From IMG/VR virus record IMGVR_UViG_3300028800_000057: 64,000 nt of DNA, one strand, 5' to 3'. This document shows, piece after piece, positions 11,630 through 55,721 of this stretch (position 1 is its first letter; each line of letters begins with the position of its first letter). Under the pieces are notes generated by a model, which saw only the letters and a list, made by a program, of their open reading frames with translations, had not been told where the DNA came from and did no database searches. The stretch comes from a virus (taxonomy: Duplodnaviria > Heunggongvirae > Uroviricota > Caudoviricetes). The position numbers and the translations under genes are program-made.

Positions 11630-12016
11630 CTAGATCTTGAACAGGTCTATTACGTTCGGAATGAACCCAGACTGTAGCTCGTCTGCCTCATCCGCGTAAG
11701 CACTGGACACATACACATAACCCACCGGGATGTTAGAGTTTAATCTGTACTCACAGCCCGACTCTAGTGCGATTACCCCTCGCTTTGGTGAAGGCAGTAG
11801 CTTCACGTTACCCTCACCAAACATGATGGCAAAAGTGAGTATCTTGTCTGTATCCGCAGGGTTGACCCAAACACGGAAGATTGGATCAACCCGAGGCAGC
11901 AAGACCGCATACCGGGGCTTTGGCTTAGCCTTGCCAACCACTCGTAGCGAGGGCCGTACAGCTGGTTCTTCAGTGGGGTCCTGGTACTCTACTTGTATCT
12001 TTGCTGGCATGGACAT
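11630..12016 (-). CDS. Hypothetical protein
   Basis: 128-aa ORF. Confidence 0.65.
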   Translation of the reverse strand: MSMPAKIQVEYQDPTEEPAVRPSLRVVGKAKPKPRYAVLLPRVDPIFRVWVNPADTDKILTFAIMFGEGNVKLLPSPKRGVIALESGCEYRLNSNIPVGYVYVSSAYADEADELQSGFIPNVIDLFKI

Positions 12017-12030
12017 AATGTCAGCAATTA

Positions 12031-12068
12031 GTGAGCCAATGTGGGAGTTCTAACTAATATTGGCTCAC
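12031..12068. promoter_or_regulatory. 10-bp inverted repeat between divergent genes
   Basis: GTGAGCCAAT-N18-ATTGGCTCAC. Confidence 0.45.
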
Positions 12069-12117
12069 AGTACTGATATCATGGGCTGTAGCACCCACAA
12101 ATGGTGTATTTGAGGGC

Positions 12118-12558
12118 ATGGCTACAAGACACAAGGATAGCGCTCCGCGAGAAGAGATTGACTGCCTGAAGGACAAGTTGGGTCAGGACATCAGGGTTGG
12201 CTCGTACATCGCCTATGGGCACGCCCTTGGTCGTTGTGCAGCCATCAAGATAGGACGCGTCCTGAAACTAACCTCGAAGCCCCTGGACCCTCTTACCTAC
12301 TCATCCTCGCCCCACCGCTTGACTGTTGTAGGAGTCGATGACGACCTTGTCTGGGCTGATCGCGAAGCCGAGATAGCTAAGTACCCACCAAAGCTCAGTA
12401 AACTTGGTACCCTTCTATACCCTGATCGTACTGTAGTTCTCAAAGATACAGTTATCCCCGCAGCTTACAAGGTGCTCCTGGACTCCTTCGAGTGGCCAGA
12501 GAAGTCCAAGAGAACCCGAACTAGATCACCCAAGGTCGCTCGTACCGTGACAACCTAG
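12118..12558 (+). CDS. Hypothetical protein (SH3-like DK.G..I.VG..IAY start)
   Basis: 146-aa ORF; GGTGTA 9 nt upstream. Confidence 0.7.
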   Translation: MATRHKDSAPREEIDCLKDKLGQDIRVGSYIAYGHALGRCAAIKIGRVLKLTSKPLDPLTYSSSPHRLTVVGVDDDLVWADREAEIAKYPPKLSKLGTLLYPDRTVVLKDTVIPAAYKVLLDSFEWPEKSKRTRTRSPKVARTVTT

Positions 12559-13150
12559 GGGGTTCAAGAGCCATCAGCACCTCCAAGCTCTTTGGTAGTT
12601 TCAGCTCAGGGATACCGAAGTACAGTGGAGTGCAAGAGAACTCAGGTTGAGGTTCGACCTCCGAGTATCCAATAATCAACTTCCAGGAGCTATTATTGGC
12701 TAGTGCCTCCCTGATCCCCGCTCGCGTCACGAAGAACAAGGTCCCGTTGGGTACAATAACTAACTTCTCATGGACGAACCGTAGAAGCTGATTCACCCGA
12801 GTGTCGATCCTGTGGGCAAGGTTGAACTCCATCCCGCGAGACTTGAACCATCTGTCCGTGAACCTCGCAACAGGTATTGAAGGTTTCGACGGGTCATTGA
12901 GCTTATTTTTAACCCTAAACTCGAAGTGAGATACAAACTTTCTATCAACCTTCTCCCATTGGATGTGCCAGGTCTCGCAATTATCCTCCCAGTCAACTAG
13001 GATGCCACCAGTCGCAGCCGAGACCACTGATTTACTAACGTCCGGCCTGGAATACCGAACGACATTTAACTCATCCAGGTTCACCGAAGTCACGTACCAC
13101 TTGATGTGAATGGGCAGGGGCATCGAGCGAGTCGTACCATGGTGCGACAA
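12521..13150 (-). CDS. Hypothetical protein with C-terminal SRYERPWVI tag
   Basis: 209-aa ORF, tag at stop. Confidence 0.7.
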   Translation of the reverse strand: MSHHGTTRSMPLPIHIKWYVTSVNLDELNVVRYSRPDVSKSVVSAATGGILVDWEDNCETWHIQWEKVDRKFVSHFEFRVKNKLNDPSKPSIPVARFTDRWFKSRGMEFNLAHRIDTRVNQLLRFVHEKLVIVPNGTLFFVTRAGIREALANNSSWKLIIGYSEVEPQPEFSCTPLYFGIPELKLPKSLEVLMALEPPRLSRYERPWVI

Positions 13151-13190
13151 TTGTTGTCAATTGTAGTGATTTGGTGTAGACTTCCTCACC

Positions 13191-13478
13191 ATGGACGACG
13201 ACAACAGCGACGAGGGCTTCTTGCTGTACGTGGATATACACTCGGAGACCGACCTAGCCTTGTTCAGTCGCGAGGATGTCATCCGTCTTCTCAAGCTCGC
13301 CTGTGTCCCTCCAGGCTCATGGTTCGTACCGAACAGGACCTTCATTAGTGTCCAGGCCGACGTAGCCCGTCCCCTCACCAAACGCGCCAGGAGGCACCTC
13401 AAGCGCTTGAAGACGCCTCAACTCGAGTTACCCTTCGACCCGAGTCGTGGTGCTGAGGACTATTTGCTCTCAGAGTAG
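13191..13478 (+). CDS. Hypothetical protein
   Basis: 95-aa ORF; GGTGTA 12 nt upstream. Confidence 0.6.
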   Translation: MDDDNSDEGFLLYVDIHSETDLALFSREDVIRLLKLACVPPGSWFVPNRTFISVQADVARPLTKRARRHLKRLKTPQLELPFDPSRGAEDYLLSE

Positions 13479-13523
13479 CAAATTCAAGTTGAGATCTGAG
13501 TATCCTCGCTCGTAATACTGGGC

Positions 13524-13856
13524 ATGACCTACAATGATGCCCAACTAACACTAGAGGAAGTTAATCAGATGCCCATGGATGCTCTGACATTCAATGACTT
13601 TGCTCAGTTGAGTGACAGATCGTTCCACTTCAGGAGTTACAGTGAGGAGCAACTCACTATAGGGGTTCCAATCTCAGAGGTCGAGCGTATTCGAGAACTA
13701 CTCTCAGACTGCAAAGATTCTCGGAAGTATTGGATGTGGGTTCGAGCTGGACTAGAACCAGACAAGGCTCTCCGAAAGGTTAGAGTGGGTCGCGCCCAAG
13801 CCAAGAAGTCTCGTCTGGCTCAAGTAGAGATCATCTATGTTCGACGAGCAGCCTAG
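13524..13856 (+). CDS. Hypothetical protein, probably leaderless mRNA
   Basis: TTGAGA-N16-CGTAAT, ATG 7 nt downstream. Confidence 0.7.
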   Translation: MTYNDAQLTLEEVNQMPMDALTFNDFAQLSDRSFHFRSYSEEQLTIGVPISEVERIRELLSDCKDSRKYWMWVRAGLEPDKALRKVRVGRAQAKKSRLAQVEIIYVRRAA

Positions 13857-14239
13857 ATCACCCATGGGCGCTCGTATCGGGACAGTAATCTCCGAGGACC
13901 TCGGGACTTCCCGAGTGTGTCCCTGAGCAGATCTATCTCGCGTTGTTGAATATCAAGATGTTCTTGATCTTTCGGCTACTCTTCTTTGACATGAGTGAGG
14001 TCCCCACAGATAGCGTCAAGGATGGACTCATCTACTGGCAACCTGAAGATCTGTCCTCTTAAAGTCCTCACGTCGATATAGGACCGAGCGGTGCCACTCA
14101 CCGGAGCAAGGTAAATAACACGATCCGACCCAGGTTCCTTCACAGAAGCAATCTCACGAGCCTCGTTGAACCCAATCACTTCGAGGGTGGCAATAACTGG
14201 AAGAACCGGCCCCGTAGAACTTGGAGTATCTTCTGGCAT
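13853..14239 (-). CDS. 87-aa gene (13976-14239) with a 40-codon in-frame extension past TAG ending in SRYERPWVI
   Basis: TAG at 13976-13978 is in frame with a stop-free stretch to TAG 13853-13855 that carries the family tag. Confidence 0.55.
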
Positions 14240-14271
14240 AGTCCACTCAGTTACACCAGCACTACCTCAGA

Positions 14272-14631
14272 TCACCATCGAACTGTGCAGGCCTTCATAA
14301 ATAGCCCGCAACAGACAACTCCGGGAACCTGCTTCATACCTACTGGATTGGTCGCCTCGAACTCCGTCGCCGACCAATCGCTCATGCATGCAAAGAAACC
14401 ATGCCCGCGGGTCTGAATATCGGTGAAACCACTGTACCTGAGTGCACGTCGGGTATCAGCCTCGTTTGTCCAGGGCATCATCCAAAGAATGAGAATGATG
14501 ATCGATATTAGGTTGAGGAGGACTTTCATGCCCATCCGGTACACCGATATTGACGAATTATATGGAAAGTAGTTGACTGGTTTTCCAGAGTATGCGAGTA
14601 TCAACGGTGTTGGAGAAGTAGTTGACACCAA
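14272..14631 (-). CDS. Small membrane-anchored protein (start probably ATG 14530)
   Basis: Hydrophobic N-terminus; G.VCCGL.KAC motif. Confidence 0.6.
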   Translation of the reverse strand: MVSTTSPTPLILAYSGKPVNYFPYNSSISVYRMGMKVLLNLISIIILILWMMPWTNEADTRRALRYSGFTDIQTRGHGFFACMSDWSATEFEATNPVGMKQVPGVVCCGLFMKACTVRW

Positions 14632-14651
14632 TCGTCCACCGATTCTAGACT
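14622..14651 (+). promoter_or_regulatory. Sigma70-type promoter for the tracr/cas12 transcript
   Basis: TTGACA (14622)-N18-TAGACT (14646), followed by ATCAGG. Confidence 0.55.
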
Positions 14652-14656
14652 TTTAT

Positions 14657-14760
14657 CAGGGGACCTTCAACCCGTCATGTACGGGGTCCACCCCTAAAGC
14701 GAGGAACAAGTTCACTCGCTAACTGCCGAATCTTCAGTGATACGGCCCCACTTACTCGGT
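14657..14760 (+). ncRNA. Candidate tracrRNA
   Basis: CCTTCAA (14664-70) complements repeat nt 30-36; CCCCACTTACTC (14746-57) complements repeat nt 17-28 (one G:U); several stem-loops lie between them. Confidence 0.7.
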
Positions 14761-14856
14761 CAAGTCTCGATGGACGATTGGTGGCAACAACTCTACAACA
14801 TAGTGGGAATAAGCATAAAGCGAGGGTTACGACCACTCGCTGGAAAGGTAGCCTAC

Positions 14857-16596
14857 GTGGCAACCAAGAAGAAAATAGAGGAGATCAAGAAACCTGAGCT
14901 GACCGACGCTGATAAGGAGTGGGCCAGTGGGGAAGTTTACAAGCTCCTTGTAAAGTACTATCAGACGGCGGATCAACTAGGTCTGAAACCCAAGAAGCAA
15001 CCAAAAGTTTCAGTATACCTGTACTGCGGTTGTCCAATGGCCAAGTATGGAAGAGATACCCTAGGACGAATCCCTCTTGAGATCATCCAAGATCGTAACC
15101 TTGAAGGGGTCGAGGAAGCTCTGTTCAACCTTCCAGGTGCACTAACGCTCCCCATAGTATTCTCGGATCTTCCTAAGGAGGAGGCGGCCACCCTAAAGAA
15201 CCAGTTCTACGGGGTAGCCAGGACGCTCACTATGGGCCTCCAAGCCGTGTACCGACGTCGGTTCCAGGGTCCAATCGAAGGGAACTTGGAGACTGCAGCG
15301 TATCGAACCTGCAATGAAGGGATGGATGAGTATCTAGAAAGTCTAGATGACCCGCTTCTGAGGTTGATGCGGCCATCGTCAAACATAGTAGCGACTGCCA
15401 GTAAGGACTACTCCACCAGGTATGGCAACTGGGAGGCTAGAAATTCACAGGATAAGTCCCCACCATGGCCGAAGGTGACTGGGTTCCCAATCAAAACCGA
15501 CTGCTTTAGTATCGAGATCACTACCCCAGAAGCCTACCGAAAGCGTTGTCCTTCTGCCCCGGCCGAATTACCCAAAGAAATCGTCATGCTTAGTCTCAGA
15601 GTACTAGCTGGGGCGAGCAAGGGTCAACGAGTAGCACCTCTTGTTGCCCGAGTCCAAGTTCGAGGTAGCTCTGACTGGGCAACCCTCAAGAGGGCCATAA
15701 GTGGTACGAAGGGGTACAAGACAACTCAAGGTAGATTGGTTCTTGATGAAGGGAAGTGGGTGTTCAAGCTGGGGTTCAAGAAACCCCGACCCGAACCTTC
15801 AAAGGTCAAGACTGCGCTGGTAGTAATCCCGGCGCTCAATGACTTGGCGATGATTTACTCACATGAAGGTGATTACCTTCGCGGCAAGTACAAGGGGGCT
15901 GGGGAGGTCCTTCCGAAGGGGATAGACTCCTCGGGTTTCATCCACCTCAAGAAAATGTATGACTCCATGAGGTCAGCCCGAGCGCGCCACTTGAACTTCG
16001 TTGGTCGAGGTGCGAGAGGGCATGGTCAGAAGAGATTCCGACTATCACTAGAAGTAGTCGAGGGTAAAGAGACCGATAGGACCAACACCTGGATGGAGCA
16101 GCAGGCCTCCCATCTAGCCAGGTACGCCAATAGTATCGGTGCTATCGTCGGGATCGACGATATGGTTTCAGTCCCTACTGCTCCGGATCGCAAGATAGAA
16201 CGTCTCCTACGACGTTTTCCCTGGTGTACCTTCCGTGACAAGATCGCATGGGCTTGCAAGAAACATGGGGTCCCAACCAAGGTAATCAAACACTCTGGAG
16301 TCAAAGACTGCCCCATGTGCGGCGGGGAGAAGACCCTAGTTGACTCTGCTAACTATGATGGTCGTCCCGAACAGTGGTGCAGGACTGGTTGTGGAGCCGT
16401 AGCCCCAAAGAACCTATTCAGAGCCTGGAGACTGTTCAAGGTTCTTCTGGTCACTGATGCCGATAGCCTGGCGGTAGTTGATCAGGGCTTCAGAAATAAG
16501 GTTGAGGGTCTAATGCATATTCGTACACGAAACAACTCACCTGAAAGTATGAACCTTATGGGTGAACAACCTGATACCGCAGATGCAGCTGAATAG
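14857..16596 (+). CDS. cas12: Cas12f/TnpB-like type V effector with degenerate RuvC (probably nuclease-dead); about 579 aa from GTG 14857, ORF open from 14737
   Basis: KWVF.LGF, GARGHGQKR, IVGIDDM (E to D), FPW..FRDKIAWACKKHGVP, CPMCG/CRTGCG zinc finger; RuvC-I reads ALVVIPAL (no Asp), RuvC-III reads PKNLFRA (D to N); adjacent to array; SD-like GGAAAGG before GTG. Confidence 0.8.
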   Translation: MATKKKIEEIKKPELTDADKEWASGEVYKLLVKYYQTADQLGLKPKKQPKVSVYLYCGCPMAKYGRDTLGRIPLEIIQDRNLEGVEEALFNLPGALTLPIVFSDLPKEEAATLKNQFYGVARTLTMGLQAVYRRRFQGPIEGNLETAAYRTCNEGMDEYLESLDDPLLRLMRPSSNIVATASKDYSTRYGNWEARNSQDKSPPWPKVTGFPIKTDCFSIEITTPEAYRKRCPSAPAELPKEIVMLSLRVLAGASKGQRVAPLVARVQVRGSSDWATLKRAISGTKGYKTTQGRLVLDEGKWVFKLGFKKPRPEPSKVKTALVVIPALNDLAMIYSHEGDYLRGKYKGAGEVLPKGIDSSGFIHLKKMYDSMRSARARHLNFVGRGARGHGQKRFRLSLEVVEGKETDRTNTWMEQQASHLARYANSIGAIVGIDDMVSVPTAPDRKIERLLRRFPWCTFRDKIAWACKKHGVPTKVIKHSGVKDCPMCGGEKTLVDSANYDGRPEQWCRTGCGAVAPKNLFRAWRLFKVLLVTDADSLAVVDQGFRNKVEGLMHIRTRNNSPESMNLMGEQPDTADAAE

Positions 16597-16604
16597 AGGT
16601 TACA

Positions 16605-17315
16605 ATGCCAACCAAGCCCACATTTGTTGATCCTTACAAGGTCACTGGAAGTACTAAACAGATCATAACTAGGCTACTCAAACTCAAGCCGAAGGACTTT
16701 CCAGACGAAGACCAAGCTTTGGACCTAATTCGAAGGCTTAAGGCCGATGCTGATCAGGGTGAGATGCGGCTAATAGCCTATCTTACCGCCTACGAGAAAA
16801 GCGAGCTCTGGAAAAAGTCGGCAGTCCAGTGCCATACCTTCAATGGGTGGTTGAAGTACTATCAAACATCGCTCCCTGATGTGAGCAGGTATAACAACGG
16901 CAAGGAGGCCCTACTCGAGTTTGGGGTTGAAGCTTGTTTGGTCTACAGCATTCGAGCGCTGTCCAAAGTGGTTAGCCTACCAAAAGTGCATCGGCATACC
17001 TTCGTCAAGGAGGAACTTGAACCGGGAGTGGAAACCCGTAGGTTTCCACTAAGTGACGTCACCGTTGGTAGTCGTGTTAAGGAGTACCGTAAGGCTCATG
17101 GTTTAGTCAGTAATGTACCACGAAACCCGAAGAGCGACCTAGCAACTCAACTCGACGAAGCCCGGGAGAGGATCTGCCAGCTGAAAGAAGAAGTCCGAGA
17201 ACTCAAGAAAGAGCGGGACGACCTTAAAAAACGACTGGCCGAATATGACCCCCAAAACCTAATCACTAAGAAACCTGTACCACGGACCAGCAAGGTATCA
17301 AGGAAGGCCGCTTGA
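16605..17315 (+). CDS. Accessory protein co-located with cas12; DUF3102-like N-terminus plus C-terminal coiled coil
   Basis: 8 nt after cas12 stop; YL.AYE...LWK.....TF..WL motif; heptad LDEARERICQLKEEVRELKKERDDL. Confidence 0.7.
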   Translation: MPTKPTFVDPYKVTGSTKQIITRLLKLKPKDFPDEDQALDLIRRLKADADQGEMRLIAYLTAYEKSELWKKSAVQCHTFNGWLKYYQTSLPDVSRYNNGKEALLEFGVEACLVYSIRALSKVVSLPKVHRHTFVKEELEPGVETRRFPLSDVTVGSRVKEYRKAHGLVSNVPRNPKSDLATQLDEARERICQLKEEVRELKKERDDLKKRLAEYDPQNLITKKPVPRTSKVSRKAA

Positions 17316-17540
17316 TTTACGAGGGGTGAGGTGCTTAGCTTCACCCCTTACTCGCTCGCAGGACTATTCTTGAGCGAGTAAGTCCATGATCCTTGACAAA
17401 TTGAGTGCGGAAAGCGAGAAGGGTACTTACCCGTAATGGGGGCTCCTTCCCTAACATACTTGGGAATCAAAAGGTGCTTTTAGTACCCTCTCGCAAGAAG
17501 CATGTGAAGTGGTGGAATTGATTGATTACTGCAGTAACGT

Positions 17541-18834
17541 GTGTTGATCCGATTATGAGTAGGTGGGGTTTGAAGGACTGTCGACGCAGAGAAGCGTGCT
17601 CAACGCATTCGTAGGTGTTGATCCGATTATGAGTAGGTGGGGTTTGAAGGGAGTTGCTCGTCAGTCCCTTCTGGGAGGGCTAGGCGGGGTGTTGATCCGA
17701 TTATGAGTAGGTGGGGTTTGAAGGTGACTCGCTGCTATTCCCGGTCGTCTCGGCACTTGGCGGTGTTGATCCGATTATGAGTAGGTGGGGTTTGAAGGGG
17801 CGAGGACGACAACGACGTTATGTCGTTGATCTCGAGTGTTGATCCGATTATGAGTAGGTGGGGTTTGAAGGTCTGAACTCGGTTGGGACTCGGTCAGGTA
17901 CTTGGTCAGTGTTGATCCGATTATGAGTAGGTGGGGTTTGAAGGCAGGTCATCAGAGTCCAGGTGTTGATCCGATTATGAGTAGGTGGGGTTTGAAGGAA
18001 TCCGACAAGCGGCCTCGCCGTAGACCTCACTTACGGTGTTGATCCGATTATGAGTAGGTGGGGTTTGAAGGTTCGATTTTGAGGCCGTCAATCTTGGCTA
18101 GCGCGTTGTGTTGATCCGATTATGAGTAGGTGGTTCTTGAAGGGATCAAGCCCGATGAAGGTGTTACGCCGGGCATGAACGTGTTGATCCGATTCTGAGT
18201 AGGTGGTGCTTGAAGGGCCGTTAGCTAGCCCCATCGCATAGTGACTAGGGTTGTGTTGATCCGATTATGAGTAGGTGGGGTTTGAAGGGTTATGTCAGCC
18301 ACACGCCAACGTGGCCCGTTCTCGCGTGTTGATCCGATTATGAGTAGGTGGGGTTTGAAGGATTCGGCAAAGGGAGGAAAAGGGGGCCGGATTTCGCGTG
18401 TTGATCCGATTATGAGTAGGTGGGGTTTGAAGGGGCTCACGAGCATTAGGATGTCGGCGCGGGTGGGATTGTGTTGATCCGATTCTGAGTAGGTGGTTCT
18501 TGAAGGTCGCCTCGCTTGGCATAGTCAATTTTCGCCAATAGGTGTTGATTCGATTCTGAGTAGGTGGGGTTTGAAGGCAATCTATCGATTGGAACCATTG
18601 CTAGTCGACTTCTTGTGTTGATCCGATTATGAGTAGGTGGTTCTTGAAGGTTCGTCGGAGAGTTCGAGCACAACGGCCCAAATGCGTGGTTGATCCTATT
18701 CTGAGTAGGTGGTGCTTGAAGGATGCATTGACTACGACCAGCAACCCGCAATAGCCAAGTTCTGACCCCATTATCAGTAGGTGGGGTTTGAAGGGCCAGG
18801 TGTTGATCTGATTCTGAGTAGGTGGTATTGAAGG
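17541..18834 (+). CRISPR. CRISPR array, 19 repeats / 18 spacers; repeat GTGTTGATCCGATTATGAGTAGGTGGGGTTTGAAGG (36 nt)
   Basis: Repeats 1-8 identical; degeneration from 18108 onward places the leader on the cas12 side; spacers 35-38 nt except one of 18 nt and one of 5 nt. Confidence 0.98.
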
Positions 18835-19262
18835 GGGCCCCACATCACCTCGTAGAGCTCGTCAAAGCCTTCCGCCAGGGTTGGGTCCACGAACCTTTGA
18901 GCCGTGATGAGGATGCCCACGCGCGGGACGAATGCCTTCCCTGTCCGTTGAGCATTCCTCTCCATAGACTGCTGAACATTGGATCTGAAATGGTATACGA
19001 TGACCCGTGCGGAGTAGTAACGCGCCAGAGCTACCAACTCAGCCCGTTCTTCAACACTCGGGTTCGTGTTGTCCACTACTAGGGACTTCCCTGCCTCGAG
19101 AGCCTCCCGAATGAGCAGAGTCTGTCTCACAGACTTTGGAGTCCGATTCTTGCGACTACGAGTCATCAAGTCCTTGCTCACAAGGACATAGTCGGGAAAG
19201 AGCACCTTTTGAAAGGTGCTCTTTCCCGATGCCTGCAGGCCAACAAGAATGATGAGATCCAT
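18774..19262 (-). CDS. AAA_33 / polynucleotide-kinase-like P-loop protein
   Basis: LIILVGLQASGKST Walker A; VVDNTN; 3' end overlaps terminal CRISPR repeats. Confidence 0.85.
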   Translation of the reverse strand: MDLIILVGLQASGKSTFQKVLFPDYVLVSKDLMTRSRKNRTPKSVRQTLLIREALEAGKSLVVDNTNPSVEERAELVALARYYSARVIVYHFRSNVQQSMERNAQRTGKAFVPRVGILITAQRFVDPTLAEGFDELYEVMWGPLQYHLLRIRSTPGPSNPTY

Positions 19263-19266
19263 CGAA

Positions 19267-20019
19267 CTACTTGAGATTCTGCAGTATTTGAGTCACAAGA
19301 TCAACATATTCGTCCCCATAGGGTAGATTCCGGTCGATGTAGATCTTCCGTCTTTGAGCAATACTGGATGTCTTGGTCTTGGGGTTGAATCCAGTTTTCT
19401 CGAAACCATGCCAATAGAGCCCGGTCCCACGCTTCTGCCATAGAGGAACGTTGTTGAAGTTGATCCCGTTCTTGTGCAGTATTTCGTTCTTGGTAGAGAA
19501 GGTGGCCCCTTCGAGCCCCTCCGTCGCCTGCTTGGCGGTATGCCCGGATCTCCTCATTGTCCAGTAGCACCAGGAGTTGATACAGCACCGGGAAGCGTCC
19601 AGCTGCCTCCAACGGAAGTAGTCCAGCACATTGGATGTCAACGGCCCAACCCATAACCGACTGTCGAAGTGAGCCGCCTGACCTAGTTGAATCGAGAAGG
19701 TCGAGGAAGCTATCCCTGCAGAGACCGACACCAGCTTCTCCACCTCGCGGCCAAATAGATCCGTATCGCGAGGCAATAGAACAGAAATCTCGTCACTCTC
19801 CGTGAACGCATACAACCCTCCAAGCTCGACCAAGAGAATCGCCGCTGTCTCGACCATAGACTCGTGAAACTTCACGTCAAATGGGTGATCCATCCCACGA
19901 GTCAGCTTCGTAAAGCTCCGCCCATCAACGCGGATGATCGTGTAAGTATCGGGGAGAACCTCCAATGAGTGGTAGTACTCAAGCCGGCGCATCCTCGCTT
20001 CTAGGGTGTCGCTTTTCAT
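19267..20019 (-). CDS. thg1: tRNA(His) guanylyltransferase Thg1-like protein
   Basis: RVDGRSFTKLT, ESDEISVL, FDSR, YF.WRQ.DA.R..IN, FN.VP.WQKRG motifs. Confidence 0.92.
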   Translation of the reverse strand: MKSDTLEARMRRLEYYHSLEVLPDTYTIIRVDGRSFTKLTRGMDHPFDVKFHESMVETAAILLVELGGLYAFTESDEISVLLPRDTDLFGREVEKLVSVSAGIASSTFSIQLGQAAHFDSRLWVGPLTSNVLDYFRWRQLDASRCCINSWCYWTMRRSGHTAKQATEGLEGATFSTKNEILHKNGINFNNVPLWQKRGTGLYWHGFEKTGFNPKTKTSSIAQRRKIYIDRNLPYGDEYVDLVTQILQNLK

Positions 20020-51038: not shown

Positions 51039-52526
51039 ATGTCTGCTGATCTGATTCAGAGAGTAGGGCTTTGCCTCAAAAGGGTTGACTTTTGAATAAG
51101 TTCTATTACGCTGGAATCAGGTCTCATTCCTTCGACCAAAAGCGAGGGTTACGACCACTCGCTAAAGCCTCCGGTTAGGAGGGTCTCATACTTTTGAGGC
51201 AAAGAGAGAGTAGCGTCAAGATTCATCGAGGCATCAGCGCCTATCTCCGTAAAGGAAGTTGACGGAAGGATTGAAGTCTCTGGGCCTTATGACAAGATGA
51301 AGGACTTGATCCCTTACCTACGTGGGAAATTCGAGTATCGCGGTCATGACCACACTTGGTGGGAATCCAAAGCGAAAATGACCCCTCTGAAGATTAAGAA
51401 TCTTCAGAAGAAGGTTGATGCGGTCAATGGGAAATTTGGCCCCAACCCTGTGAAGGTGGAAGAGCCAGCGGATGCTAAGGCGGTCAGGATTGAGGAAGCC
51501 AAAAAGCTGCTCAGTAAAGCGATCCATATACGGGTTACTGGATTGATCTTTAGTCCCATCGGGGTCGATGGTGCTCAATTGACAGGAGCTCTTACTGATC
51601 TGAGGGTGTTGATTAACATGTCTGGTGGGGATTATGGCCCAGAGTTCTCGAAGTTCTATGTGCAGAATATCAAACCAGTAGAGTTTAGTAAGCTCCTGGA
51701 CGCGATTGAGGACCAGGGTAGGCTTGTGGCCAAGTCCCTTGCTGATCTGTCTAGTATAATTCCGCGCAAGTTCCCGAGCTTGCAGATTAACGTGGGGACC
51801 AATAACGGGAGCTACTTGTTCGTAGTCTCTGGAAAGACCTATGACTTCAAGGATGATATCAAAAAGCTGGTACCGGTAACATTCAATGGTCAAGGGAGTT
51901 TCTGGTGGGCTCCAGTCCATCAGGTTAAGGAAGCTCAAGTAAAGAAGCTAATTGAGTATCTCGAGAGTGAAGAGCGGGCGAGAGCTGAGAAATGGAAGGC
52001 TGAAAAGGTGGAGAGGACACCTACCGAGAAAGCGAAGAGGCCTAATCGTAGAGGGGATCATTGCTTAAACTGCGGGGCGTGGGTAGATGCTGGTGATGGT
52101 TACTTAGTAGACCATTGGGACAATGATGAGGACGAGCTAGTCTATAAGGTGGTTCACTCTGATCCTAGTGTCTGCGCTGAAGTCAAAGAGGCGGCCAGAA
52201 TACGCCGTGAAAAGGCTAATACGAAGCGTGAGGCTCAGGGAAACTTGTATAAGCTTTGTGCAAAGTCAGAGTACTATGTACAAGGTACAGGACATCGACC
52301 CCCAGGTGAGCAGATCTGGATTGACAAGACTGCACTCGGATATGGGGGTGGGACGTGGGTAGTTATTGAACCCGGTGATAACTACTTCTGGTATGTCAAG
52401 AATAACGGGGCTGACGGGGACGATTGGTCCAACAACAATGTCTCGACAGGTGGTGCTGGGGCCATTGGATATCGACTTCCGATGACAGAAGAAGCGCGCG
52501 TTCTCATTGACGTGGCAAAGGAGTAG
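51039..52526 (+). CDS. Gene split by a 147-bp insertion; restored product about 446 aa (MSADLIQRVASRFIEAS...), downstream part annotated from 51297
   Basis: Removing 51067-51213 fuses ATG 51039 in frame with the 51297-52526 ORF. Confidence 0.75.
51067..51204. mobile_element. 138-bp MITE-like insertion
   Basis: 14-bp TIRs CTTTGCCTCAAAAG (51069-82) / CTTTTGAGGCAAAG (51191-204); 9-bp direct repeat AGAGAGTAG (51058-66, 51205-13). Confidence 0.85.
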
Positions 52527-55252: not shown

Positions 55253-55392
55253 TTGATTTTGTAAGTTGGGTGAGTTATGATCTCATTGAATCAGGATACA
55301 TTCTTGATTTATTGGTTTTGTTCTTTCGACCAAAAGCGAGGATTATGATCACTCGCTAATGTCCCAGGTTAGGGAGTCCTTTTAGGGCAAAG
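55253..55392 (+). ncRNA. Promoter plus tracr-like structured RNA homologous to 51085-51204
   Basis: TTGATT-N17-TATGAT, GAATCAGG, TTCGACCAAAAGCGAGG-attatgatc-ACTCGCTAA, GGTTAGG loop, GGCAAAGAG. Confidence 0.6.
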
Positions 55393-55394
55393 AG

Positions 55395-55721
55395 GTGTCT
55401 GACTATCTTGAAACCAAGCATGAGTTGAGGGAACTCAAGAATACCTTCGTAGCAGTCACGACTCGAGTAGAAGCGGTGGATGCCTACTCACATGAGGTCG
55501 CTGAGCGCAGTCATGACCTCAAGGAGACGGTGGCTCAGCTCTCGGGGTACCTGGCTGGGATACTTCCGAAGGCTGGTGTGAAGGTCCCAGGGGCTGAGCC
55601 AGGGGCTATCAGCATGGAGATTGTCTCTGACCCACTTCCCATGAACGAGAAGCGTCAACGCCCGGTGAACGTCCACACCCGGGTGCCGGCACCCAAGCCC
55701 AATGACAGTTCAGGTCGATAG
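55395..55721 (+). CDS. Hypothetical coiled-coil protein
   Basis: 108-aa ORF followed by a terminator. Confidence 0.65.
   Translation: MSDYLETKHELRELKNTFVAVTTRVEAVDAYSHEVAERSHDLKETVAQLSGYLAGILPKAGVKVPGAEPGAISMEIVSDPLPMNEKRQRPVNVHTRVPAPKPNDSSGR

Follow-up and report, generated by a model that had tools for sequence, protein, structure and literature searches.

The window analysed here is a 64,000-nt stretch of DNA (IMG/VR virus record IMGVR_UViG_3300028800_000057; Caudoviricetes) that carries a compact type V-like CRISPR (clusters of regularly interspaced short palindromic repeats) locus of a very large uncultured phage; contigs with the same or related genes reach 443-473 kb. Between the trans-activating CRISPR RNA (tracrRNA) of this locus and its cas12f-like effector gene (cas12) stands a hairpin, hairpin 2, which is an exact copy of the family-consensus form of an internal tracrRNA hairpin (P1; hairpin 1 in the window) and abuts the Shine-Dalgarno (SD) sequence of cas12. 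Hairpin 2 is real, young and dispensable, and a regulatory role for it is plausible and testable, though unproven. An earlier note on this DNA had proposed that the effector controls its own translation through this mimic of its scaffold RNA. On the sequence evidence, such translational autoregulation by scaffold mimicry is plausible, and we put it somewhat below an even chance.

The earlier note had reported the inverted repeat AGCGAG-N11-CTCGCT at 14698-14720 and again at 14819-14841, and both copies were located exactly there. The duplicated unit is longer than first reported: it spans 26 nt, TAAAGCGAGG-N8-CACTCGCT, with 20/26 positions identical between hairpins 1 and 2. Both hairpins share one fold, with 6 bp in the lower stem, 3 bp in the upper stem and a bulged A, and their folding energies are -9.5 kcal/mol (z -4.4) for hairpin 1 and -11.8 kcal/mol (z -4.3) for hairpin 2. 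The description as a scaffold mimic holds. The family consensus is found in hairpin 2, not in hairpin 1: all 26/26 positions of hairpin 2 agree with the tracr P1 of lineages L002, L007 and L008, and the window's hairpin 1 has drifted in its upper part. The hairpin is followed without a gap by the SD-like GGAAAGG, which begins 15 nt upstream of the start codon GTG (14857-14859), as had been claimed. When one mismatch at most is allowed, the inverted repeat occurs four times in the window against 0.18 expected, a count reached in none of 100 shuffles; the two further copies, also on the + strand, lie at 51141-51163 (25/25 identical to hairpin 2 with flank) and 55335-55357 (a compensatory variant). 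Hairpin 2 is non-coding and folds by itself. We rejected it as an intrinsic terminator or attenuator: GGAAAGGTAGCC follows, there is no U tract, and no + strand terminator was predicted in 14200-17700 in a scan of this window's locus alone. The features of the locus and of related loci are collected in Table 1.

Table 1. Features of the window and of related loci (positions are those of the window unless a lineage is named).
Feature	Position or lineages	Strand	Remarks
Putative promoter of the tracrRNA-cas12 unit	14573..14601	+	TTGACT (14573-78), 17-nt spacer, TGC-GAGTAT (14593-14601)
tracrRNA, ~180 nt	14617..14795	+	inverted repeat and consensus fold; closing stem, pseudoknot strand, P1, GCCG/CGGC hairpin, anti-repeat
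Hairpin 1 (tracrRNA P1)	14695..14720	+	TAAAGCGAGG-AACAAGTT-CACTCGCT; in 9/9 aligned lineages
Linker from tracrRNA to hairpin 2	14796..14815	+	weak relic of repeat 3' half (AGTGGGAAT, 14802-10)
Hairpin 2, second P1 copy	14816..14841	+	TAAAGCGAGG-GTTACGAC-CACTCGCT
SD-like GGAAAGG	14842..14848	+	8 nt before start codon; aligns with AAGGAG or AGGGAG of relatives
Small predicted hairpin around start codon (GGU.AGCC/GGC.ACC)	14847..14865	+	minimum-free-energy fold; L001 predicted alike; prediction only
cas12f-like effector gene	14857..16596	+	579 aa, start GTG 14857; RuvC catalytic residues degenerate
Partner gene	16605..17315	+	236 aa; after cas12 in every locus; all-helical, C-terminal coiled coil
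CRISPR array	17541..18844	+	19 repeats of 36 nt, GTGTTGATCCGATTATGAGTAGGTGGGGTTTGAAGG
Cassette 1	51113..51209	+	P1 copy 51138-51163 identical to hairpin 2 (25/25 over 51139-63); model R1 101.7 bits
Cassette 2	55307..55397	+	P1 copy 55332-55357, compensatory upper stem; model R1 90 bits
Cassette of relative	L001 14-107	-	
Cassette of relative	L016 10389-10482		
Cassette of relative	L020 3629-3722		
Cassette of relative	L021 7505-7598	-	
Cassette of relative	L026 1970-2063	-	
Leader type A	L042, L009, L011		linker 16-30 nt; no element near SD
Leader type B	L003, L004, L007, L008		linker 44-61 nt; conserved box GAGTGGGTG, then GAAGG, then SD
Leader type C	window, L001		linker 61-65 nt (window 61); hairpin 2 against SD
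Type B box, just before cas12 start	L003 1255-1275		
Type B box, just before cas12 start	L004 5965-5990		
Type B box, just before cas12 start	L007 5964-5990		
Type B box, just before cas12 start	L008 5963-5990		

P1 is the tracr helix with the most fixed sequence, the remaining tracr helices covarying freely, and it is still recognisable as GAGG-N8-CACTC in a relative at 38% protein identity. In an alignment of 18 copies (nine tracrRNAs, two copies of hairpin 2 and seven dispersed cassettes, described below), the lower seven pairs and the bulged A showed zero compensatory changes. The two upper pairs covaried, with 10 double-change cells that 0/500 shuffles reproduced and with 98.4% of cells paired. 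Such conservation of the lower-stem sequence is the pattern expected from base-specific contact. P1 cannot be a cleavage site, because it must remain intact within the tracrRNA. The 3' strand of P1 (CCACTCG) resembles the anti-repeat, but its strand order is opposite to that of a guide hairpin.

In the proposed mechanism, a protein that recognises P1, most simply the nuclease-dead Cas12f-like effector, would also bind hairpin 2. Effector bound 0-2 nt from the SD would hinder 30S binding, and effector not loaded on tracrRNA and CRISPR RNA (crRNA) would in this way lower its own synthesis, with hairpin 2 acting as a translational operator that mimics the protein's normal RNA ligand. Features of an operator by mimicry are present, as the hairpin-2 site matches P1 in sequence and fold and abuts the cas12 ribosome-binding site (RBS); P1 is the presumptive ligand of the effector. 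The effector itself resembles Cas12f and TnpB (best PDB match of the family profile, Cas12f1 9i8y, E 1e-8; NF040570 also matches), and it is probably non-cutting because its RuvC catalytic residues are degenerate in the alignments. Its RuvC-I strand reads ALVVIPALNDLAM (the VIPALN position) and holds no Asp, as is the case across the wider family. The Asp of RuvC-III, expected after the zinc finger, is N in the window effector and V, T or I in close relatives, and this position is D only in L007, L008, L009 and L011. The degenerate positions correspond to residues about 320-334 and 512-527 of the 579-aa protein. Distant relatives carry VRRGM or VVPSL at RuvC-I, likewise without Asp.

The same operator logic could serve another regulator, either the 236-aa partner or a host or phage RNA-binding protein, that binds both P1 and hairpin 2. 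It would fit this that the partner gene accompanies cas12 in every locus and that P1 also occurs in cassettes distant from the CRISPR locus. However, the partner is helical (predicted local distance difference test score of the model, 82), and the only likeness of its residues 48-170 is a weak one to the ParB/KorB DNA-binding domain (Z 6.2 to 4.8, VIA; Atlas TM 0.41), a match below the informative level for helical proteins that suggests DNA over RNA. No likeness to an RNA-hairpin binder or RNase was seen; Foldseek returned no PDB match for the partner, and the search of Pfam and NCBIfam gave coiled-coil noise alone. This helix-turn-helix (HTH) likeness is slight evidence against the partner as the hairpin binder. 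In addition, P1 forms a helix inside the scaffold RNA of the effector itself and is conserved to 38% protein identity. A different regulator is unlikely in our judgement. The same likeness keeps alive a reading at the DNA level, in which the inverted repeat would be an operator bound as double-stranded DNA by the HTH-like partner as a dimer. The 6-bp half-sites are indeed invariant, with no compensatory change in 18 copies, and the partner combines its weak ParB/KorB likeness with a coiled coil. Yet the two pairs above the half-sites change together in ways that preserve their complementarity, P1 is integral to a strongly covarying RNA, and every copy is oriented in the sense of the RNA structure around it, has an asymmetric bulged A and is flanked 5' by UAAA; the partner's fold match, as said, is below the informative level. 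We consider a DNA operator very unlikely.

Hairpin 2 was found only in the window and L001, 2/10 lineages, which are sisters (support 94/95). The next branch, L002, retains its 5' half alone (AGCGTCGGTCA), with 14-16 nt missing, and has lost neither the effector nor the array; hairpin 2 is therefore dispensable. It is a young P1 duplicate that was born in the ancestor of the window, L001 and L002 and later lost once. As a measure of neutral divergence, 120/242 four-fold degenerate sites differ between the window and L001 (0.496). Against this background hairpin 2 is 23/26 identical (P = 5e-5, from two lineages only) and its lower stem with flanks is 18/18 identical (P = 4e-6), which excludes plain neutral decay. 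The three changes all fall in the apical N8, which is variable in all P1 copies. The SD region (14842-56) is 13/15 identical to that of L001; the linker 5' of hairpin 2 is poorly alignable and is homologous to GTGGGAATTTAAGG in L002 and GTTGGAATTGAAGG in L001. As far as this comparison reaches, hairpin 2 is kept by selection or by copy-correction in the parts that are invariant across P1 copies. The near-identical copies of L001 (L043/P0130) and of the window (L036/P0002) add no lineages. A scan of metagenomes gave only an L003-lineage copy (L035), a scan of genome contigs gave none, and IMG/VR yielded one locus, again of the L003 lineage. Contigs from four rhizosphere runs, compared with 14450-15050, showed no variants, joints or ends of use.

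Several points weigh against autoregulation through hairpin 2. Its presence in just two of ten lineages counts against a core feature, and in L002, which deleted the 3' half of the hairpin, the effector is still intact and the array has 34 repeats. For initiation to be blocked, it is not enough that a hairpin lies just 5' of an SD, and the P1 copies of the cassettes are not consistently beside a start codon. Furthermore, copy-correction by gene conversion could mimic purifying selection, because a further copy elsewhere in this genome (51139-63) has the same sequence as the window's hairpin 2. Hairpin 2 would then be a non-functional duplicate, kept uniform by conversion with the P1 copies of the tracrRNA and the cassettes, which accords with its 25/25 identity to that cassette copy, its 26/26 identity to consensus P1, its restriction to one group of lineages and its loss in L002 without visible harm. 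In L001, however, the upper part of the hairpin (GGTCATGCCC) matches no other copy seen in that lineage, neither the tracr P1 nor the one cassette, and the lower stem is intact, so wholesale conversion fits less well than selection on the lower stem. Both lineages also have the hairpin at the same place against the SD, and the SD region, too, is conserved. A duplicate maintained by conversion alone is, on balance, improbable.

Features of a type V (Cas12f-like) tracrRNA are present in the RNA upstream of cas12: an anti-repeat complementary to the repeat, a conserved structure, and a location adjoining the effector gene and the array. Its closing stem pairs 14617-14650 with 14759-14792, and the 3' end of the repeat, GAGTAGGTGGGGTTTGAAGG, finds complements in the pseudoknot strand CCTTCAACC (14664-72) and in the anti-repeat CCCCACTTACTC (14746-57). 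The consensus fold over nine lineages holds 56 pairs, with compensatory changes in 28 of them, and the whole leader folds at -96.9 kcal/mol (z -5.2). An Rfam search of 12000-20000 gave zero family matches. Transcription would start near 14608. Hexamers of the type TTGAC-N17-(T/G)A...T occupy the equivalent place ahead of the tracrRNA in 9/9 aligned loci, in the form TTGAC-N17-(TG)n-GAGTAT and 10-25 nt before the RNA; a simple promoter scan missed the candidate at 14573-14601 because GAGTAT is a weak -10 element. The distance from the tracrRNA end to the cas12 start is 16-65 nt in 10/10 lineages, and in the relative at 38% protein identity the SD lies 8 nt past the tracrRNA closing stem. Linkers of 16-19 nt leave no room for any arrangement but co-transcription, which we infer. 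In the window's locus, the only one scanned, the stretch from the tracrRNA to cas12 had no predicted + strand terminator and no further predicted promoter. Given the conserved promoter, the close spacing in ten lineages and the lack of a predicted terminator in the window, the tracrRNA is probably the 5' leader of the cas12 mRNA; effector and RBS would thus share one transcript, which speaks for autoregulation. Two other promoter candidates were rejected. TTGACA-18-TAGACT at 14622-51 lies in the 5' arm of the closing stem, where its bases covary as RNA pairs in relatives, and a promoter within the linker would have no -35 element 17 nt ahead of GAGGGT.

With one promoter for tracrRNA and cas12, some processing of the transcript is likely, and hairpin 2 could be a structural cis element without any mimicry, that is, a stem-loop that becomes 5'-terminal after cleavage and shields the cas12 mRNA from 5'-end-dependent decay or marks the processing boundary. 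Such a role would suit a hairpin that folds stably and autonomously (-11.8 kcal/mol) and lies between the 3' arm of the tracrRNA and the SD. But protection needs structure and not sequence, yet the lower stem and flanks are unchanged at 18/18 positions at ~50% neutral divergence and identical to P1, and seven lineages do without hairpin 2. We hold a purely structural role to be fairly unlikely.

The earlier note had argued that cas12 starts at 14857 and not at 14737, and this is borne out by homologue starts, upstream stops and the structured RNA over 14737-14795, a stretch that makes up the 3' part of the tracrRNA. The search gave ten homologue clusters, and nine full-length homologues from other phages were aligned. 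In eight of these nine the protein opens with M-A-A-K-K or M-V-K-K at the position that corresponds to GTG 14857; P0011, the ninth, starts further in, and the called start of P0010, one of the eight, overlaps its own tracrRNA. An in-frame stop lies 12-48 nt upstream, without an alternative start, in 6/8 relatives' loci checked, and in L001 it sits just ahead of that lineage's own hairpin 2. A protein extension from 14737 or 14770 was rejected, being present in no other phage's homologue, preceded by upstream stops in relatives and located in covarying RNA; the longer N-terminal call occurs only in a near-identical copy of the window phage. Gene calls that start within the tracrRNA are probably annotation errors, namely P0010 (MVTANDL...) and the 608-aa P0002/P0129 from ATG 14770, and the likely true starts are MDLTEEDKEW for L009 (5694-5738) and GTG 14857 for the window (14770-14856). 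The gene model is corrected accordingly: the true start is 14857, and the upstream 'open reading frame' is RNA.

Comparison of the leaders distinguished three types (Table 1). The 9-nt box of type B lies 10-14 nt before the SD, with GAAGG 2-5 nt past the box, and its consensus GAGTGGGT(G/A) is the exact complement of the tracr anti-repeat CACCCACTC. The duplex of box and anti-repeat reaches -19.6 to -21.8 kcal/mol, versus -12 to -14.5 for shuffled linkers (p 0.006-0.07), and the box of the L003 lineage pairs with the anti-repeat better than the real repeat does (GAGTAGGTGGGG). In the window, L001 and L002, pairing of the linker with the anti-repeat was no better than that of shuffled linkers (p 0.61-0.82; window 0.66). 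The longer leaders thus all retain an element related to the effector's RNA near the RBS, in mutually exclusive forms. Among the comparative arguments for regulation this is the strongest, though it comes from few lineages. The type B layout resembles a natural single guide with the RBS in spacer position.

A guide function could be imagined for the hairpin-2 leader as well, in the manner of tracr-L or CreR (see below): the decayed repeat 3' half, with hairpin 2 after it in the role of a 'spacer', would direct the dead effector to DNA that contains P1, such as its own tracr gene and the cassettes, and repress transcription. Repeat-like sequences lie directly 5' of the hairpin position (GTTGGAATTGAAGG in L001, GTGGGAATTTAAGG in L002), the first 10-12 nt of the 'spacer' match the P1 DNA of the same transcription unit and 25 nt match cassette 1, and for an effector without RuvC catalytic residues binding would mean repression. 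However, TTT stands 5' of the sole protospacer found, whereas the flanks of the P1 'targets' read CACCCC, TCACCC or CGACCA; the window's repeat relic pairs with the anti-repeat no better than chance; a guide self-paired at -11.8 kcal/mol is a poor guide; and the box-type leaders have no seed match near their promoters. A natural guide is accordingly a highly improbable account of hairpin 2.

Copies of P1 also occur outside the CRISPR locus, in dispersed tracr-like cassettes of ~95 nt with four predicted helices including the P1 copy, of which related huge phages carry one or two per fragment. A model built from the cassettes matches the tracr core at E 1e-5, with 27.8-29.2 bits versus 24.7 bits for the hairpin alone; nearly all of the signal is P1, and a likeness of the cassettes to the tracrRNA beyond P1 was therefore rejected. 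The open reading frames downstream of the cassettes are inconsistent: some start at a distance of 60-224 nt, and in other cases there is none. No convincing second match to the leader 'spacers' or to the cassettes' variable 3' tails came up in the sequences searched. In its widest form the autoregulation reading would make P1 a portable effector-binding operator, read by the dead Cas12f-like protein in its scaffold, at its own RBS and in the cassettes of ~450-kb phages; this extension is doubtful. If it were true, a CRISPR effector would double as a sequence-specific RNA-binding regulator whose feedback senses unloaded effector, and the hairpin-type and anti-repeat-box-type leaders would be two evolutionary solutions to one feedback problem.

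Other observations concern the CRISPR array and its targets. The array is irregular at 17905-17995 and 18683-18844: one repeat pair is 54 nt apart, so that its spacer has 18 nt, and degeneracy grows over the last three repeats. The array leader (17316-17540) is conserved far above neutral, with a mean identity of 72% over four lineages. It carries TTGACA-N17-GAGAAG, resembling the tracr promoter, and a hairpin CTTACTCGCTC-N14-GAGCGAGTAAG at 17344-17383, the 5' arm of which resembles, together with its flank (CCCCTTACTCG), the tracr anti-repeat. Spacer 8 of L033 (4763-4799), a 145-kb IMG/VR phage, matches L021 11059-11095 at 37/37 positions, with the 5' flank CAGTTT; L021 is a 12.5-kb contig of a related phage and carries a cassette. 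Related huge phages seem to target each other with a T-rich protospacer-adjacent motif (PAM), for which a single protospacer is weak evidence.

In autogenous translational repression by RNA-ligand mimicry, a copy of a protein's RNA site lies at its own RBS, and excess protein shuts off its own translation. Examples are the E. coli ribosomal proteins S8, L1 and L10-L12 on their operon mRNAs, the MS2 coat protein on the replicase operator hairpin, and T4 RegA. Hairpin 2 resembles the ribosomal-protein and MS2 cases in being an exact copy of a scaffold hairpin that abuts the SD. It differs from them in that the presumed regulator is a CRISPR effector, for which binding and repression are only proposed here, and in that the cas12 leader already holds the full ligand, the tracrRNA, ~60 nt upstream.

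The matching of effector level to guide-RNA supply is known only from DNA-level circuits, namely tracr-L and CreR. In the reports on tracr-L, a natural single-guide RNA lets Cas9 repress its own promoter, acting on DNA through an 11-bp match beside a PAM (Workman et al., 10.1101/2020.05.21.102756; 10.1101/2023.03.03.530964). The window's locus shares with tracr-L a tracrRNA extended by extra RNA elements, which here would serve cas feedback, and the box-type leaders (L003, L004, L007 and L008) share its layout; unlike tracr-L, the box type has no promoter match, and the 'targets' of hairpin 2 lack a T-rich flank. The location of hairpin 2 at the RBS points to the RNA level, unlike the DNA-acting tracr-L. 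CreR and CreA are described as degenerate mini-CRISPRs, and repeat-like elements that stand alone are also reported upstream of cas genes, cas12a among them (Liu et al., 10.1101/2023.03.10.532045; Shmakov et al., 10.1101/2023.03.03.530964). Elements of this kind reportedly yield crRNA-like guides with partial complementarity to a cas promoter beside a PAM, and the autorepression senses crRNA load. The likeness to CreR lies in a decayed CRISPR-RNA part beside the effector gene and in the logic of sensing crRNA load that the earlier note had proposed, whereas what hairpin 2 duplicates is a stem of the tracrRNA rather than a repeat, and it has no target beside a PAM.

TnpB is reported to make omegaRNA by processing the mRNA that encodes it (Nety et al., CRISPR J 2023, PMC10278001). 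As in that system, an effector of the same superfamily has its scaffold RNA embedded in its own mRNA; on that account the TnpB scaffold overlaps the gene 3' end and is excised by the protein, whereas here the scaffold is a 5' leader with an extra hairpin at the RBS. Nuclease-dead Cas12f homologues are reported to take part in transcription control, some of them beside CRISPR arrays and often with HTH or sigma partners (Hoffmann et al., Nature 2026, PMC13472631). The broken RuvC, the array and the weakly HTH-like partner of the window's locus recall these proteins; that work deals with DNA targeting, and a leader-embedded tracrRNA or an RBS copy of a scaffold hairpin is not described in the sections consulted. 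In a literature search that did not cover all journals, no case was found in which a copy of a scaffold hairpin at the RBS of a Cas effector is described as controlling that effector. With a leader of ~250 nt and natural variants of the hairpin, anti-repeat-box, short-linker and half-deletion kinds, the locus is a compact test system, and its 26-nt RNA module may serve as a specific handle for the effector family. Were autoregulation by scaffold mimicry true, the window would hold a counterpart, at the RNA level, to the classic feedback of ribosomal proteins, in a non-cutting relative of Cas12f carried by a phage.

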